The notes under the pieces: model-generated
What the model was told of the DNA's origin: nothing
What the model saw: the letters and a program-made list of their open reading frames with translations, nothing else
Databases searched by the model: none
Translations under genes and position numbers: made by a program
Source of the DNA: Nitrospirota bacterium
GTDB lineage: Bacteria > Nitrospirota > UBA9217
Direction: 5' to 3'
Assembly: GCA_963754875.1 (NCBI GenBank)
Contig: CAVWHO010000020.1
Span: 192,001-256,000 of the forward strand
DNA: 64,000 bases
Part shown: one piece after another, positions 32,314 to 42,285 of the stretch
How positions within the stretch are numbered: the first letter of the stretch is position 1
Layout of the letters: every line of letters starts with the position of its first letter

Positions 32314-32718
32314 CTACTTTGCCGCTTTCTGTTCCTGCATCCATTTCAAGAGTCCGTCCTTCATGCTGCTGTTGATGGGCTCGCCCGCAGATGCTGAAAG
32401 CGCCGGTTGCTGGTGCATTGGCCGCGGTTTGCGTGCAACACTTTTCCCAGATTTTGGATTTGGAGCTACGGACGGTTTCCTCGCCGCGGGCCGCTGCTGC
32501 GCCGGCGGCCGTTTCTGCTCCTCCTGCACAGCGGGGCTGAGCGTAGAAATCGCATGGCGATACAGAATTTCCCGCTTCGGGCCTTCCATGATAATGACGT
32601 AGCCGTCGAATGCCTTGATTTTTCCCGAAACACGGATCTTGTTCTGGAGCGTTACGGTTACGGGCGTCTGCTCGGTCAGATAGGTATTCAGCATCCGGTC
32701 GAGGAGATTTGTTTCCAT
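32314..32718 (-). CDS. Hfq-like protein with a long basic, Pro-rich C-terminal tail
   Basis: PVTVTLQNKIRVSGKIKAFDGYVI...ILYRHAISTL (Sm1/Sm2); GAGGTG RBS. Confidence 0.8.
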   Translation of the reverse strand: METNLLDRMLNTYLTEQTPVTVTLQNKIRVSGKIKAFDGYVIIMEGPKREILYRHAISTLSPAVQEEQKRPPAQQRPAARKPSVAPNPKSGKSVARKPRPMHQQPALSASAGEPINSSMKDGLLKWMQEQKAAK

Positions 32719-32736
32719 GGAAAACACCTCATGCTA

Positions 32737-33222
32737 CTACCGATTGATCGTTGTGATCGAATGTTTATAGTACAAGTGCTGCTTGCCGCTTTCTTTCAGA
32801 AGGAGCGTGAAACTGTCATATGCTTCTATATTCCCCTTGATTCGTTGCCCGTTGATCAGATACAGCGTAAGGACCTGGTTTTCTCTGATAGCTTTATCGA
32901 GAAACTCCTGTTGAATGTTCGGCCGTCCTGACGCCGCCTCGGATGAGGATTGCGTCTGATCAGAAACTGCCGGGACCGCTTGTGATGCGGGAAACGTGAG
33001 GAGCGTCTGCGGAGCGGTGAGGTAGGATATTTCCTGTTTCAAAAGAGTGATGATCTTGCCGCCTGCGTCAAGATTTATTTCGTACCTGCCGATCTCGCGG
33101 ATGATTCCCTCAAATTCGGTTTTGTTCATCTGGCCGATACGAAGCTTGATGCCGCTTGCTAAAGCCTGAGACAGGAACTGAGGTTCGACGGTTGCCTTTG
33201 TTTCTTCCTTCAATACTTCCAT
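32737..33222 (-). CDS. hfq: RNA chaperone Hfq with an additional degenerate N-terminal Sm-like domain
   Basis: C-terminal NIQQEFL...LYLINGQRIKGNIEAYDSFTLLL...HLYYKHSITTI; N-terminal QFL...FEGIIREIGRYEINL...LLKQEISYL. Confidence 0.82.
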   Translation of the reverse strand: MEVLKEETKATVEPQFLSQALASGIKLRIGQMNKTEFEGIIREIGRYEINLDAGGKIITLLKQEISYLTAPQTLLTFPASQAVPAVSDQTQSSSEAASGRPNIQQEFLDKAIRENQVLTLYLINGQRIKGNIEAYDSFTLLLKESGKQHLYYKHSITTINR

Positions 33223-33229
33223 TGAGAAA

Positions 33230-33258
33230 ATCATATCTGAAATTATTTACTTTTGCAA
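33230..33258 (-). promoter_or_regulatory. Sigma70 promoter for hfq (leaderless arrangement)
   Basis: TTGCAA-17 nt-TATGAT, ATG (33222) 7 nt downstream. Confidence 0.65.
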
Positions 33259-35295: not shown

Positions 35296-35430
35296 GTGAT
35301 CTACCCCACGCCTGAAGGCGGGGGCTTCTCAGGTCAACGAAGGGCTTTAGTACGCCGATTCTCACTGAGCGTTACTTTCGGGCGATCCGCCCGTAGTTAA
35401 ATTTGTCCGAAAAGGAGAATGTTTTGAGCA
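35296..35430 (-). ncRNA. Putative TnpB omegaRNA/reRNA scaffold (5' boundary uncertain)
   Basis: Structured segment between the tnpB 3' end and the right end (cgggcggatcgcccg hairpin, gaagcccc...gggg hairpin), the position known for IS605 reRNAs. Confidence 0.55.
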
Positions 35431-36500
35431 GCATTGAAATCACGGTCAACGATTTCTCTGCAACCTTGACAAGTCCACTCTCGATCTTTGAGTGTAAGCC
35501 CGTCGTTGATCCAGCCGCACGTTGCATGCCGCTTAGACGATGGGAAAAACCTGTCGATTTGACCGAACATGGTTCCACTCCATTCGGATTTGTACGCAAC
35601 CTGACGGATGAATTCAGACCAGCCAGCATCGCAAACGCTTTTTGCAATGCAGTGGTTCGCCGTCATGCCCTTCACATTCAAGTCCTCGGCAAAGATAGCT
35701 TGGTTCTCGCTTACCAGCCGGGAACTCAATTTGTGAAGGAAATCTTTTCTTTGATTCGCAATTTTTTCATGAAGCAGCGCGACCTTGTGACGCGCTTTGT
35801 TCCGGTTCGCGCTGCCCTTTACCTTGCGGGAAAGACGGCACTGAAAGAACTTCAAGCGATCTTCGGACTTGCGGAGAAACTTTGGGGACTCAACCCGTTC
35901 ACCATTGGAGGTTACGAGAAACGATTTGAGCCCCAGGTCGATGCCGATCTGATTACCAGACTTTTTCGGCTTTATTTTCTTTTCGACTTCACAAAGAACG
36001 GAGGCAAAATACTTTCCGGTCGTTGTCTTCGAGATCGTAATGCTCTTCAATGCGCCTTCAATCTTGCGGTGAAGAACGGCCTTGATCGGAGCGAACTTCG
36101 GAATACTGATAGTCCCAGAGTCAGTATCGACGGAAAAATGTTGAGGCACCAGAAACGATTGTCTGTCATGCTTGCTCTTGAACTTCGGGAACTCCGATCG
36201 CTTGTTAAAAAAGTTGTTGTATGCAACATCAAGACGACGCAGGGACTGTTGAAGCGCCTGAGAATTTACAGCGTTCAGCCACACAAATTCAGGGCTCTTT
36301 TTGAGATCAGTCAGCATCTTCGCCGTGTCATTGTACGTCAATCCCTGTTTCTTCTTGCCCTTATTCGTAGCGTAGTAATCAATGCGCTCACGCAGAAATC
36401 GGTTGTAGACGAAACGGCAGGACCCGAAATGATGAGCGAGAAATTCGGACTGCTTCGCTGTCGGGTTAAGCCGAAAACTGTAAGCTTTATTGATGAGCAT
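35397..36500 (-). CDS. tnpB: RNA-guided endonuclease TnpB
   Basis: AYSFRLNPT, FGSCRFVYN, RuvC GIDLG / AEDL / DRDFNAA, Zn ribbon HATC...CQGC. Confidence 0.93.
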   Translation of the reverse strand: MLINKAYSFRLNPTAKQSEFLAHHFGSCRFVYNRFLRERIDYYATNKGKKKQGLTYNDTAKMLTDLKKSPEFVWLNAVNSQALQQSLRRLDVAYNNFFNKRSEFPKFKSKHDRQSFLVPQHFSVDTDSGTISIPKFAPIKAVLHRKIEGALKSITISKTTTGKYFASVLCEVEKKIKPKKSGNQIGIDLGLKSFLVTSNGERVESPKFLRKSEDRLKFFQCRLSRKVKGSANRNKARHKVALLHEKIANQRKDFLHKLSSRLVSENQAIFAEDLNVKGMTANHCIAKSVCDAGWSEFIRQVAYKSEWSGTMFGQIDRFFPSSKRHATCGWINDGLTLKDREWTCQGCREIVDRDFNAAQNILLFGQI

Positions 36501-37143: not shown

Positions 37144-37217
37144 ACAAAGGACGAATTTTCCCCCAAGGACCGCTAATGTATTCTCGAAGGAAAGTTTGTA
37201 CCCACCGCAGAAGAATC

Positions 37218-38428
37218 TAGTGTAGTGTCTCACAAACGACTGGTGTTATCAGCCTTTTTCTTGCGAGAGCGAGGTAATGTGCAGCCTGGCTGAATTTTCT
37301 CCAATGTTTGTTTGCAGCGTCCAAGTTTCTTAACGATCGATTCAACGGTTGCGGTCCATACAAACGGTTTTGGGTCTTTGTTCCAAGCAGCCAAATACTC
37401 TTCGATAGCGCTCTTGAGCGCGTCCACGCTGACAAAGACTCCGCGACGTATTCGTTTTCCCGTCAGTTCTCCGAACCAACGCTCAACAAGGTTCAACCAG
37501 CTTGAACTGGTCGGGACGAAGTGGGAAACAAAACGTGGATGCCGTGTTAACCATCTCTGGACTTTGGGGTGCTTATGCGTGCCATAGTTATCCATCACTA
37601 TGTGCAGCTGCTTTTCGACCGGGAATTCAGCATCCAGTTGCTTTAAAAACTTGAGAAATTCCTGATGGCGATGCCGAGCATAACATTGACCGATCACTTT
37701 ACCTTGCGCCAATTCGAGCGCAGCAAAAAGGGTTGTCGTGCCGTTACGCTTATAGTCATGAGTCATGGTACCGCAACGCCCTTTTTTTAAAGGAAGTCCC
37801 GGTTGTGTACGATCTAACGCTTGAATCTGGCTTTTCTCATCCACACACAGCACTAATGCTTTTTCTGGAGGATTGAGATAGAGCCCGACGACATCGGTAA
37901 GCTTTTCCAAGAACCGTGGATCGCGTGACAACTTAAATCCCGTGGTTCTGTGCGGCTGAATATGATGACTTTGCCAGATCCTATTGATCGTTGCTTTGCT
38001 CACGCCCTGCTGTTCAGCCATCGTTCGGCAACTCCAATGGGTGGCTCCAGCAGGCTTCGTTTGCAGTGTGGCATTAATTATTTTATTAATTTTGGTTGCC
38101 GTTAACTCTGGTTTACGTCCGCGACCTGCCGCAACTTCCCAAAGGCAGTCCGGACCTTCACTACAGAACCGCTGCCTCCATAATGCAGCCGTTTTATAAT
38201 TGATTTGCATTTGCTTTGCGATGGCCTTGTCTTGTTGGCCATTCGCAGCGGCTAGAATAATTCGACACCGTTGAGCAACTTGTTGCGGGGTGCGATGAGC
38301 CCGCACCCATTGCTCTAGTTCTTGTCGATCAGACTCAGTAAGGTTTATGGTTAAAGCGTGTCGTGCCATGAACAGCATCCTATCACAAATCATGACATAA
38401 CACCAGTTAATTGAGAGACACTACACTA
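37218..38428 (-). mobile_element. IS630-family element, copy 2
   Basis: Same IRs, length and CTAG target as copy 1; one difference noticed (38112 T vs 12666 C, synonymous). Confidence 0.93.
37230..38369 (-). CDS. IS630 transposase
   Basis: Protein identical to the copy 1 transposase in the ORF track. Confidence 0.95.
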   Translation of the reverse strand: MARHALTINLTESDRQELEQWVRAHRTPQQVAQRCRIILAAANGQQDKAIAKQMQINYKTAALWRQRFCSEGPDCLWEVAAGRGRKPELTATKINKIINATLQTKPAGATHWSCRTMAEQQGVSKATINRIWQSHHIQPHRTTGFKLSRDPRFLEKLTDVVGLYLNPPEKALVLCVDEKSQIQALDRTQPGLPLKKGRCGTMTHDYKRNGTTTLFAALELAQGKVIGQCYARHRHQEFLKFLKQLDAEFPVEKQLHIVMDNYGTHKHPKVQRWLTRHPRFVSHFVPTSSSWLNLVERWFGELTGKRIRRGVFVSVDALKSAIEEYLAAWNKDPKPFVWTATVESIVKKLGRCKQTLEKIQPGCTLPRSRKKKADNTSRL

Positions 38429-38463
38429 GGAAATTACACAGCGACCAGAGCAAGAAATTGTGC

Positions 38464-38512
38464 TTGACATTTATGTAAAAGTATAATAATATTTGCATAC
38501 TTTTATGTAAAT
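38464..38512 (+). promoter_or_regulatory. Sigma70 promoter overlapped by a putative ArsR operator
   Basis: TTGACA-17 nt-TAATAT; inverted repeat ATTTGCATA-CTTT-TATGTAAAT (38491-38512) over the expected TSS. Confidence 0.7.
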
Positions 38513-38545: not shown

Positions 38546-38887
38546 ATGCTCCCCATGGACAAGAGAATCGATCTCCTCAAAGTCATCGCCCACCCCATGC
38601 GCATCAAGATTCTCGAAGAGCTTACTCAAGGTGTGAAATGCGTAAGCGATTTCGAAGACTCCCTCGACATCAGCCAGCCGAATGTGTCACAGCACTTGAC
38701 CCTCCTCCGAACGAACGGAATCATCGATTTCTTCGTTGACGGAAGGCTCAAGTGCTATTTCCTCAAAGAACCTCTCATCCCTGATCTCCTGGGACTTCTC
38801 AAAAAAAAGTATAAAGAAGACATACCCGCACCGGCCTGTTGTCCGGTGACGAAAAAAGGAACTTACCCTGGCGAAAGGAGAAGATAA
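38546..38887 (+). CDS. ArsR/SmtB family repressor with a Cys-rich tail
   Basis: LKVIAHPMRIKIL, KCVSD, ISQPNVSQHL, C-terminal PACCP; AAGGAG RBS. Confidence 0.92.
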   Translation: MLPMDKRIDLLKVIAHPMRIKILEELTQGVKCVSDFEDSLDISQPNVSQHLTLLRTNGIIDFFVDGRLKCYFLKEPLIPDLLGLLKKKYKEDIPAPACCPVTKKGTYPGERRR

Positions 38888-38893
38888 GTCTGC

Positions 38894-39163
38894 ATGAAAA
38901 AGCACACAATTACTCTCTACGTGAACGACCCCATGGGCAAGCGCTGATTGTCCAATATGGATGCCGCTCGTGTGGCGGAGAAAGAGTTCGGCGCAGAAGT
39001 CGTCGTAATCAAGAAGACCTCGAAGGAGTATCAGGGGCAGCGAGACCCGCTTCCCTGTCCTTCCGTTGTCTTGAACGGGCGGCTCATCGCAAAGAAAGAT
39101 ACCATTACGTACCAAAGCTTGAAGACATCGATCATGTGCGACTGTGAAATAACACTCGTATAA
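38894..39163 (+). CDS. Small thioredoxin-fold putative selenoprotein (89 aa, Sec18 at TGA 38945-38947)
   Basis: MKKHTITLYVNDPMGKR-U-LSNMDAARVAEKEFG...PLPCPSVVLNG; ATG 7 nt after the arsR stop; hairpin CCGCT-CGTGT-GGCGG downstream of TGA. Confidence 0.75.
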
Positions 39164-39174
39164 AGGAGGGTGCC

Positions 39175-39531
39175 ATGCCAAAAACCGTAACTCTATATTT
39201 ATCAACATCGCCGTATTCCTACGAGAACACGCTGACGAGCGCCCGCATTGCCGAATCCGCTTTGAACAAGGGCCATACCGTCAACCTCATCGCATCGGCT
39301 GACGGCATCTACTGCTTTCTGACAAAGCAGAAGGCGAAAGGGATCCTGAATGCCGAAGAGGAATTCACCAGGCTCATACAAAAAGGCTTGAAGGTGTATC
39401 TCTGAGGCGGGTGCCTCAACTTTCGCCGTGCGGCGAAAGACGACTATCTTGCAGGTACAGAAGTAGGCTCGCTTAAAGGCCTGTTTGCAACCATGGGCGA
39501 GACGGACGTGTGGATTAATCTAGGTGCATAG
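39175..39531 (+). CDS. DsrE/TusD-like sulfur-transfer selenoprotein (118 aa, Sec77 at TGA 39403-39405, UGGC)
   Basis: Read-through gives ...KGLKVYL-U-GGCLNFRRAAKDDYLAGTEVGSLKGLFATMGETDVWINLGA, ending at the next RBS; hairpin CTTTCGCC-GTGC-GGCGAAAG. Confidence 0.88.
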
Positions 39532-39905: not shown

Positions 39906-40187
39906 ATGTTCGTGATGATAAAGAGCGCGCCGGATACGACTGATGGAGCACTCGGATTGACCCTTGCGAAAGAAAGCGGGGCCGATCTTATCCTGCTGCA
40001 GAACGGCGTGTATTTTGCGAAAAAAGAACGGCTCGGCGATTTTGCCAGGACAGTGTATGTCCTGGATGACGACAAGAGGCTCCGGGGTCTCAAGGATTCC
40101 GAAATGGATGGGCGTGCAAAAAACATCGACTACGACAAGCTGACCGACATCATTACGGGCGGCGACAAGGTGGTCGGGATGTTTTAA
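39906..40187 (+). CDS. DsrH/TusB-like protein
   Basis: LILLQNGVY, VYVLDDD..LRGL, IDYDKL. Confidence 0.85.
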   Translation: MFVMIKSAPDTTDGALGLTLAKESGADLILLQNGVYFAKKERLGDFARTVYVLDDDKRLRGLKDSEMDGRAKNIDYDKLTDIITGGDKVVGMF

Positions 40188-40212: not shown

Positions 40213-41403
40213 ATGTCAAGGATCGTTGTGGTAGGGGGATCGTTCGGGGGATTGACAGCGGCCTTCGAGCTTAAACGACTGCTTGGGAAGAAAGCCGACG
40301 TGACCGTGGTGAGCGACGATGACCGGTTTGTGTTCCTGCCGTCGCTGCCGTGGCTCATCATGGGGTGGAGAAAGCCGGAAGATATTACCCTTAAGGTGAG
40401 CGAGATCCTGAAGCCCAAGGGGATCGAGTTCGTTCATGACGCGGCAAAGCAGATCGACGCCGATTCATCGAAGGTAACAACCTCAAAAGGAAAAGAGCTG
40501 CCCTATGACTTTCTCGTAATATCTACGGGACCGTATCTTTCCTTTGATGAGATTCCCGGGCTGGGACCTGATAAGGGCCATACCGACTGTACGTTTACAC
40601 TTGATCATGCATTAAGAGCCAGAGAATCGTGGAAAAAGATCCTGGAGAACCCCGGTCCGATAGTCGTCGGTTCGTCGCAGATGGTGAGCTGTTTCGGCCC
40701 GTCCTACGAGCTGGCGTTTGAGATGGACACCGAGCTTCGCCGTCGAAAAATGCGCCACAAAGTACCCATCCTCTATCTCACGTCTGAACCCTATCTCGGC
40801 CACATGGGGGTCGGTGGTCTCGGCAAATCAAAGCGCTTCATGGAAGACGAATTTGCCGAGCGGGACATCAAACCCGTCATCAGCCAAGCCATTGAAGAGG
40901 TAACGCCCGGAGAAATCAAACTCAAGGACGGCACAAAGCTACCCTTCAAACTTGCCATGATCGCGCCGCCGTTCAAAGGCGTGCCTGCCGTCATGCCGTT
41001 GGGAAATCCCCGCGGGTTCATCCCGGTTGACAAGAACTATCGTCATACGAAATTTAAAAATATTTTTGCCATCGGTGTTACCATGGCCATCGCACCGCCG
41101 GAGGCGACGCCGGTGCCGACGGGCGTTCCCAAGACCGGATTTATGACGGTGAAGATGGCGAAGATTGCCGCGGCAACTATCGCTGCCGGCATCACCGGGA
41201 AGACCCCGCCTCCTCCGTCGGAAATCGGCGTGGTTTGTCTCATGGACATGGGAAACACAGCCGCATACATGAAGGCCTATCCCGTGCTTCCGCCGCGCCA
41301 GAGTTCCTATACGAGGAAGACCATCTGGGCGAAGTGGATGAAGGTCCGGTTCGAGAAATACTTCCTCTGGAAGATGAAGAGGGGGCTCAGCAATCTGCCA
41401 TGA
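40213..41403 (+). CDS. sqr: Sulfide:quinone oxidoreductase family flavoprotein
   Basis: VVGGSFGG FAD site, SCFGPSYE, GVPKTGFM, VCLMDMG, C-terminal amphipathic helix KVRFEKYFLWK. Confidence 0.85.
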   Translation: MSRIVVVGGSFGGLTAAFELKRLLGKKADVTVVSDDDRFVFLPSLPWLIMGWRKPEDITLKVSEILKPKGIEFVHDAAKQIDADSSKVTTSKGKELPYDFLVISTGPYLSFDEIPGLGPDKGHTDCTFTLDHALRARESWKKILENPGPIVVGSSQMVSCFGPSYELAFEMDTELRRRKMRHKVPILYLTSEPYLGHMGVGGLGKSKRFMEDEFAERDIKPVISQAIEEVTPGEIKLKDGTKLPFKLAMIAPPFKGVPAVMPLGNPRGFIPVDKNYRHTKFKNIFAIGVTMAIAPPEATPVPTGVPKTGFMTVKMAKIAAATIAAGITGKTPPPPSEIGVVCLMDMGNTAAYMKAYPVLPPRQSSYTRKTIWAKWMKVRFEKYFLWKMKRGLSNLP

Positions 41404-41546
41404 AGAAAGAGATATTGAAGCTGCACGCTGATTTTTGCAAGATATTTTCCAATCCCACGAGGCTTGAGATACTCTGCCTGCTTAGAGAAGGCGAACTGAC
41501 TGCCGGCGAGATCACTGAGAAGCTCGGCGTGTCACATGGCTATTAA
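41400..41546 (+). pseudogene. Second ArsR regulator, truncated by the adjacent IS
   Basis: MKKEILKLHADFCKIFSNPTRLEILCLLREGELTAGEITEKLGVS stops before the recognition helix; ATGA overlap with the sqr stop. Confidence 0.8.
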
Positions 41547-42265
41547 ACTTACATCATAGGTGCAGGGCCAGGCGGTTATGTCGCCGCGATACGTGCAGCG
41601 CAGGCTCTTTCGTTCTTTGAGCTTCGGTGTAGATTTCATGGCTGAAAAGGTCAATGACATGCAGCGCATAGAACCTACGGTCATCTTTGATGTAGCGCGG
41701 CCCCACCAAGCCCATCTGGTGGATATTGTTGCACCCCAAGGCCTCGGTGAAGTAAGGGTATTCGACTCCTTTGGACGCATAGGCTGTTTTTTTAACGAGC
41801 CCTTTGCGTTTCAGCACTCGGTTTATCGTGCTGTCCGAAGGAAATGGTAGCCCCTGCTTCTTGAGCTCCCATTTGATGGCGGAAACGCCGATCTGGGCAT
41901 AAGGCGCATCCACCAGTTGCTGCCTGGTCAAAAGGATGCGCTTTTTCGCTCCCTCGTCGATCTCCGAGGGCCTTGTTTTGGGAGCCCGAGATTGTTCTTT
42001 GAACCAGCCTGCTGCTCCGGTTCGATATCGTATCAGCCATTTGAAGAACCACTTCTTGGATCGGTTCAGGCTGGTATAAACATCTTTGGGTGATTCGCCT
42101 CTTTGGATGTGTCGTTTGATAGGGGTCTGTCTGAGTGCGCTCTCCTTTAGTAATCTGAATAAGGAGAGCATGAATTGGGCCGAGAAGATGCTCTAGCCTA
42201 ATAAACACGATTTCGGGTAACCGATGTCTTGACCAGCCGGGTAACCGATGTCCTGAAACTTGTCA
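41530..42265 (-). mobile_element. Internally deleted IS481-like element (transposase fragment)
   Basis: HTH RSKKWFFKWL.RY, SRAPKTRP, PSDSTINRVL, incomplete integrase core; tandem end repeats gggtaaccgatgtc(t/c)tga at 42215-42256. Confidence 0.65.
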
Positions 42266-42285
42266 GCTATACCATAATCCCTGCA

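Follow-up and report, generated by a model that had tools for sequence, protein, structure and literature searches.

The window analysed here is a 64,000-nucleotide stretch of contig CAVWHO010000020.1 (positions 192,001 to 256,000), assembled from a Nitrospirota bacterium. It contains an operon whose genes run in the order ArsR, TsoC-like selenoprotein, DsrE-like selenoprotein (E), DsrF-like subunit (F), DsrH-like subunit (H), sulfide:quinone oxidoreductase (SQR) and a truncated second ArsR. The features of this region, in window coordinates, are the following.

38464..38492, forward strand: sigma-70-like promoter match upstream of ArsR (10/12, a consensus match only)
38546..38887, forward strand: ArsR-family repressor at the head of the operon, with conserved Cys32, Cys70, Cys98 and Cys99
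38894..39163, forward strand: second predicted selenoprotein, TsoC-like, 89 aa, TGA at 38945-38947, start codon inferred
39164..39169, forward strand: AGGAGG ribosome-binding site of the DsrE-like gene, from sequence
39175..39531, forward strand: predicted DsrE-like selenoprotein gene, 118 aa, U77-G-G-C80, E subunit of a DsrEFH-like trio
39403..39405, forward strand: in-frame TGA, predicted Sec77, at the position of A. vinosum DsrE Cys78
39412..39414, forward strand: codon of Cys80, the second position of UxxC, invariant in the alignment
39420..39439, forward strand: bacterial SECIS-like hairpin, 8-bp stem and GUGC loop
39541..39894, forward strand: DsrF/TusC-like subunit, 117 aa, from a family without a conserved Cys
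39906..40187, forward strand: DsrH/TusB-like subunit, 93 aa, no Cys
40213..41403, forward strand: SQR, 396 aa, active-site Cys C160 and C342
41400..41546, forward strand: second ArsR, truncated near an IS fragment to 48 aa, against about 100 aa in relatives

The E gene opens with an ATG at 39175, is interrupted after 76 codons by a TGA and continues in the same frame for 41 more codons, giving 118 aa. This frame, first proposed in a preliminary description of the locus, can be read directly off the sequence, as can the overlap of its TAG (39529-39531) with the AGGAGG of the next gene. Reading through the TGA raises the score against the Pfam DsrE family from 32 bits for the truncated product to 53.7 bits and moves the end of the match from position 76 to position 114 of the 116 in the profile. 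A lack of DsrE similarity beyond the TGA, which the preliminary description had named as grounds for abandoning the idea, was not found; the 41 codons show protein-level conservation and supply the rest of the DsrE fold. The codon was also said to occupy the place of the reactive Cys78 of DsrE, at the end of a strand, and both parts of that claim hold. In the profile alignment it faces the Cys of 2HY5_A (A. vinosum DsrE), whose residue number 78 was counted on that same alignment, and in an AlphaFold model (pLDDT 87.9) residue 77 closes strand E73-77 and is followed by a short helix. The model superimposes on 2HY5_A (DsrE) with a TM score of 0.88 and on 2D1P_A (TusD) with 0.85. YchN is the best match by both sequence and fold, and the TGA site also aligns to the first Cys of its CxxC. 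All 41 aligned sequences have Cys80. Matches to PPR and ribosomal S11 proteins in these searches were discarded as chance matches. A plasmid search returned only distant haloarchaeal DsrE proteins, and no fused form was seen among 8000 longer candidates, a weak line of evidence. Three RNA runs gave no cover over the gene and are uninformative on its expression.

The TGA at 39403-39405 is almost certainly read as selenocysteine. It is retained in all 34 relative loci that cover the site: 33 of the 35 related loci have the TGA in an intact frame, L035 retains it ahead of an 8-nt deletion, and the L034 sequence stops short of the site. The 8 nt missing right after the DsrE TGA in L035 (L035:4446-4450) reflect either decay or a sequencing error. 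Among the database matches listed (120 of 401), every homolog terminates at the residue preceding the TGA. A search with the natural Cys form returned 108 proteins, of which 72 are full-length, and all 72 carry CxxC at the Sec site. Across 301 sampled genomes of the phylum Nitrospirota, the TGA form occurs in 81 (the window genome included) and the Cys form in 4. The TGA form itself splits into two subgroups, UGGC and UTGC, which are about 42% identical. Because the selA and dsrA matches of the window genome (454 and 396 positions) contain no TGA, TGA is not a general sense codon in this organism.

A hairpin downstream of the TGA had been reported earlier, and CTTTCGCC-GTGC-GGCGAAAG is indeed present at 39420-39439. 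Taken alone it folds with -11.3 kcal/mol, its GUGC loop begins about 22-23 nt past the UGA, and the loop G is invariant (33/33 sequences). It also agrees with the bSECIS model as given in the available text of PMC13188914. Such hairpins are not rare: an equally good one accompanies 123 of 3618 TGA-ended frames of at least 150 codons in the window genome (3.4%), and 56 of the 3618 combine it with a read-on of at least 40 codons. A 60-nt fold gives z = -2.3 and is equalled by 7 of 200 shuffles. The hairpin alone is modest evidence; chance is excluded by conservation. Under the hairpin, synonymous codons are frozen in a set of 42 distinct ungapped genes from which cut, frameshifted and duplicate loci were excluded (Arg84 CGC in 42/42, Arg85 CGT in 41/42, Ala87 GCG in 39/40); 39 other degenerate conserved sites, serving as control, average 0.54 and none reaches 0.95. 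Over 33 sequences from both subgroups, 89.6% of stem cells pair, against at most 59% in slid controls. Twenty stem cells are changed on both sides, a value found in 0 of 500 shuffles; counted as stem pairs, the two-sided changes number only 3, a figure also reached in 233 of 500 shuffles, and the sequences used for covariation are related to each other. The four Cys-coding genes do not form this hairpin.

Termination at the TGA, with the gene a truncated or decayed dsrE, is very improbable: the 76-aa product of the database annotation and the frameshift just after the TGA in L035 would agree with it, but the 41 downstream codons are conserved at the protein level and supply the remainder of the fold, the stop at the Cys position is always TGA and never TAA or TAG, and the hairpin is constrained at the RNA level.

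A genome-wide scan for TGA plus hairpin, run as a register control, returned 80 frames that are mostly spurious. Two of its frames are candidate selenoproteins with family labels assigned by eye, a DsbA-looking UxxC frame at G000:C22:23849 (-) and a CxxU frame at G000:C19:12143 (+). The window genome encodes selA, selB, a TGA-containing selD and tRNA-Sec (selC). Among the other TGA genomes, selA is present in 73 of 80, and in 57 of 58 of the good ones. Because selA is also present in 4/4 Cys-form genomes, its co-occurrence with the TGA form does not discriminate, and the idea that the Cys form marks loss of the Sec machinery is ruled out on the same count.

Phylogenetic trees place the Sec sequences together on one side of a branch with support of 98/94, which remains 97/93 after removal of the Sec site and the residues encoded by the hairpin. 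This placement fits a single switch from Cys to Sec, the root of the tree being unfixed. Hosts of the Cys form include Moorella, Spirochaetota, Aminicenantales, Chloroflexota, Bathyarchaeia and Nitrososphaerota. Two database proteins, P0195 and P0196, group with the Cys forms yet stop immediately short of the Cys site; judging from these protein sequences, Sec may have arisen there a second time, independently. One locus of the Sec set (L004) is titled Betaproteobacteria; its protein is 95% identical and its operon resembles the Nitrospirota ones.

The claim that the trio is DsrEFH-like is borne out by its partners, as profiles identify the two genes after E as specifically DsrF-like and DsrH-like. 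The F profile has DsrF as its best match (E 5e-18) and the H profile has DsrH (E 1e-10), and no Cys is conserved in the H family. A complex prediction for the natural Cys-ortholog E-F-H trio of L088 scored 0.92 with a control at 0.80, and was counted neither way. The SQR encoded downstream is closest to the Aquifex and Acidithiobacillus enzymes (3HYV, E 1.4e-97). Its Cys160 and Cys342 align with theirs, its N-terminal Cys is shifted by two residues, and its C-terminus is about 30 aa shorter. The Aquifex and Acidithiobacillus structures are of type I, and the window SQR is type-I-like.

Upstream of E, the TsoC-like gene appears as a mere 71-aa ORF when its TGA is taken as a stop. A hairpin at about 38963-38976 lies in the same register as that of the DsrE gene, the TGA is kept in 24/24 copies, and a G stands at +23 in 22/24. 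The family matches a thioredoxin-like model, TIGR00412, and the MTH895/ArsE-type model. The leading ArsR scores 50 against a BigR cutoff of 155; its Cys ligands resemble those of metalloid sensors.

The distal genes of the operon are broken in the window genome. Upstream of the operon is an IS630 element (window 37217-38429), of which the genome has several near-identical copies, and downstream is part of another kind of IS (window 41605-42270). Since two IS elements flank it, the window copy of the operon may have moved, or the assembly may be at fault. The 3' part of the SQR gene (window 40903-41534) has a 98% identical copy adjoining aspS (G000:C16:101221-102259); this copy is frameshifted and is accompanied by a full-length second ArsR and by what remains of DsrE2 and MMPL. 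In the relative L006, the whole operon adjoins aspS. Farther upstream in the window, on the reverse strand, are an IS200/IS605-type TnpB (35397-36500, NF040570 above cutoff), with no TnpA among the neighbouring ORFs scanned, and two tandem Hfq-domain genes (32314-33234), one with a long N-terminal extension.

Conservation of the cluster was tallied over 59 Sec loci, each gene being counted at the loci with enough flank. F is present in 56/57, the one miss being a cut gene whose F is visible, and H in 55/55. SQR lies downstream in 47/53 and is missing nearby in the other 6, ArsR lies upstream in 47/55, the TsoC-like gene occurs in 22/55 and TauE in 16/55. Genes for DsrE2, MMPL, a YeeE-like protein, rhodanese and selD stand beside subsets of the Sec loci; within the first 35 loci, only L029 and L031 have the YeeE-like gene next to the operon. 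At 38 Cys loci, some of them near-duplicates, F is found in 34/34 and H in 29/30, SQR is nearby in 16/26 and missing in 10/26, and the TsoC-like gene is found in 0/25. The accompanying SQR is type-I-like at 49/49 Sec loci, whereas at 20/21 Cys loci it is type-III-like and about 28% identical to the window SQR. The link between E-F-H and SQR thus outlasted a change in the type of SQR.

Individual loci show further arrangements. Two tandem TsoC-like TGA genes lie upstream of the Sec dsrE at L061:1897-2558 (-), one of which passes the TsoC cutoff (50.7 vs 45). In L012:2837-3092 and L078:6519-6772 the TsoC-like genes are frameshifted, by decay or sequencing error. At L002:8867-10608 and L032:7488-9208, selD and then TauE directly follow the operon.

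The window genome also holds a full dsr operon on a separate contig (C19), which includes a dsrH-dsrE-dsrF trio (L131:5477-6630, corresponding to G000:C19:105976-107132). The DsrE of that operon carries CxxC, is 28% identical to the Sec DsrE, and falls below the NCBIfam cutoffs (TusD/DsrE score 21.7 vs 89.25); from its sequence, the H-E-F trio is likely DsrEFH type II-like. Among the 80 other Sec genomes, 76 have dsrA and 74 have an intact Cys paralog of the dsr-operon type. Because this intact Cys dsrE and dsrA coexist with it, the Sec trio is an additional system and not the DsrEFH of the dsr operon. Thermodesulfovibrionia have been reported to possess "dsrFH, but no dsrE", according to the available text of PMC11033732. 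Truncation at the Sec codon as the sole cause of that report was rejected; divergence explains the missing dsrE equally well, since the intact paralog in 74/80 genomes is also far below cutoff.

Selenoproteins of this kind have been predicted before. The accessible part of a 2005 Sargasso Sea survey lists DsrE-like UxxC proteins among redox motifs (PMC1088965), a DsrE-like selenoprotein was predicted in Desulfovibrio vulgaris (PMC1794560, as far as its available text goes), and a 2026 review lists the family with the representative WP_014524487.1 and, in its accessible portion, calls such families largely uncharacterised (PMC13188914). With 53.7 bits against a PF02635 gathering score of 22.7 bits, together with the UGGC motif, the predicted protein is a member of this already catalogued family by Pfam and motif. 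In the available texts, the published proteins share with it PF02635, UxxC, a single Sec and a SECIS downstream of the UGA, but are given no operon, partner or function, whereas the window protein belongs, as E, to an E-F-H trio next to SQR. The word DsrE does not occur in the accessible BSepDB text (PMC13326102). The literature searched, mainly the freely accessible part, yielded no account of a DsrEFH trio that contains Sec and lies with SQR.

Among characterised systems, DsrEFH type I (A. vinosum, 2HY5) and TusBCD (E. coli, 2D1P) have the fold, the E-F-H order and the reactive Cys78 position in common with the window trio. In the window trio, E, F and H are adjacent and each matches its own subunit. 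They differ in that A. vinosum DsrE and E. coli TusD have a single Cys at the Sec-equivalent site, where the window protein has Sec plus a second Cys, and structural identity is only 12-15%. Unlike both, the window trio lies outside any dsr or tus cluster, and it stays under the TusD, TusC and TusB cutoffs (TIGR03012 15.4/89.25, TIGR03010 40.6/94.15, TIGR03011 35.6/49.2).

In DsrEFH type II of the YTD cluster, the equivalent Cys is the proven sulfur-carrying residue, according to the available text of PMC13293266. Type II shares with the Sec trio the occurrence of a divergent DsrEFH in dsrAB genomes, Nitrospirota included, but is described there as adjoining yeeE/tusA or dsr genes and as having Cys in 99.3% of cases. 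The window operon lacks synteny with yeeE/yedE plus tusA or with dsr. The text of PMC13293266 does not mention selenocysteine, and its supplement holds no trace of the motif of the Sec DsrE family.

The upstream selenoprotein and the leading ArsR are distant relatives of components of the Tso system, TsoC (NF045708, E 2.5e-8) and TsoR (NF045707, E 2.5e-7), but remain under the respective cutoffs (33.8/45 and 30.6/115). Neither TsoA nor TsoB was found among 26 window proteins. The source paper on Tso, the three selenoprotein operon, is reportedly Haft and Tolstoy 2025 (mSystems). The SaoD model gave no NCBIfam match for the Sec DsrE at E up to 10, and the DsrE-like SaoD homologs of SAO were "never detected as selenoproteins", as worded in the available part of the preprint (bioRxiv 10.1101/2022.07.06.499078). 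A related gene set in Synechocystis, suoRSCT, combines ArsR, a type I SQR and arsenite transport, as set out in the accessible text of PMC4307280. Both suoRSCT and the Staphylococcus cst operon have in common with the operon described here an ArsR-type or sulfur-sensing repressor, an SQR, and TauE or another transporter. Neither suoRSCT nor cst is known to include a DsrEFH-like trio or a selenoprotein.

A role in handling sulfide or polysulfide, separate from that of the dsr-operon DsrEFH, is likely. More specifically, we give roughly an even chance to a DsrEFH-like trimer that would take SQR-made sulfane sulfur on Sec77. SelB would read the hairpin and insert Sec77, and E, F and H would assemble as in DsrEFH and TusBCD. 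Since F and H lack a conserved Cys, U77xxC80 would be the sole reactive centre. SQR would oxidise sulfide to polysulfide, the Sec77 selenolate would accept the sulfane sulfur (Se-S-), and the sulfur would then pass from Sec77 to a Cys carrier such as TusA, DsrE2, rhodanese or DsrC. Which of these serves as acceptor is a guess, because neither a TusA nor a DsrC gene was seen in the window operon. Cys80 could resolve the Sec77 adduct to an Se-S ring, which the optional TsoC-like selenoprotein might re-reduce. Membrane transport of sulfur species would fall to TauE or YeeE, and induction of the operon to the ArsR proteins. Every step of this chemistry is inferred from DsrEFH types I and II. The other neighbours belong to sulfur-handling families (TauE, DsrE2, YeeE-like, rhodanese), which favours the relay, while the YchN-like second Cys speaks against it in suiting redox cycling as well as carriage. 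Also weighing against it are the loci that lack a nearby SQR (6/53 Sec and 10/26 Cys), the low BigR score and metalloid-sensor-like Cys ligands of the leading ArsR, and the broken distal genes of the operon in the window genome.

That second Cys leads to the alternative that U77xxC80 is an oxidoreductase centre and not a carrier, cycling between selenol-thiol and an Se-S ring. Substrates of such an enzyme would be protein persulfides, polysulfide or peroxides, and the TsoC-like partner of thioredoxin type would regenerate it. The invariant Cys80, the CxxC of all 72 Cys orthologs, the best match to the CxxC protein YchN, the affinity of the upstream selenoprotein family to TIGR00412, and the placing of DsrE-like UXXC among redox motifs in the available text of the 2005 survey (PMC1088965) all agree with it. 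However, CxxC also occurs in the DsrE that this genome encodes in its dsr operon, so the motif is compatible with a carrier role, and F and H are kept (56/57 and 55/55) while the proposed reductant is found at 22/55 Sec and 0/25 Cys loci. We consider this alternative unlikely.

Less probable again is that the operon handles metalloids along with sulfide (arsenite and thioarsenic species, or selenide and selenite), with the Sec site binding or transferring As or Se. The four conserved Cys of the leading ArsR, which include a C-terminal Cys-Cys pair, point this way, as do the MTH895/ArsE-type match of the TsoC-like family, the selD and TauE genes that follow the operon in L002 and L032, a YeeE-like gene whose best score is to a selenium-metabolism model, and the suoRSCT precedent in the available text of PMC4307280. 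Yet no arsenate reductase, ArsB/Acr3 or ArsP occurs among 28 neighbour or 26 window proteins, and the Cys operons, which have no TsoC-like gene (0/25), retain E-F-H and SQR. A TusBCD-type relay for tRNA 2-thiolation or cofactor sulfuration is highly unlikely: fold and gene order are the same (TM 0.85 to 2D1P_A) and some database labels read TusD, but the three Tus cutoffs are far from reached, the trio is patchy even inside one family and is linked to SQR and ArsR, and neither tusE nor mnmA is among the scanned neighbours.

The sulfane-sulfur relay can be carried one step further, to a bolder proposal that we regard as doubtful. The trio would belong to a third, SQR-coupled class of DsrEFH that predates its selenium form and ranges from archaea to Bacillota. 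A single Sec switch in one Nitrospirota lineage would have placed the sulfane sulfur on selenium, and the system would feed SQR-derived polysulfide into DsrC/DsrAB.

The conserved operon ArsR-[TsoC-like selenoprotein]-E(Sec)-F-H-type I SQR seems to be undescribed. It leaves knowledge of Sec decoding unchanged. DsrE-like selenoproteins have been listed as predictions for 20 years. The operon now gives them partners and a probable substrate, so that function can be tested with the assays used for DsrEFH type II; natural Cys orthologs are available as controls. DsrEFH serves as a marker for the direction of sulfur metabolism. Marker counts for Nitrospirota need correcting, because this E-F-H branch is truncated in databases and would drop from HMM surveys. 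If the third-class reading is true, a quarter of the sampled genomes of the phylum would gain an inducible entry route for sulfide oxidation, one that is invisible to annotation because the E subunit is cut at the UGA.
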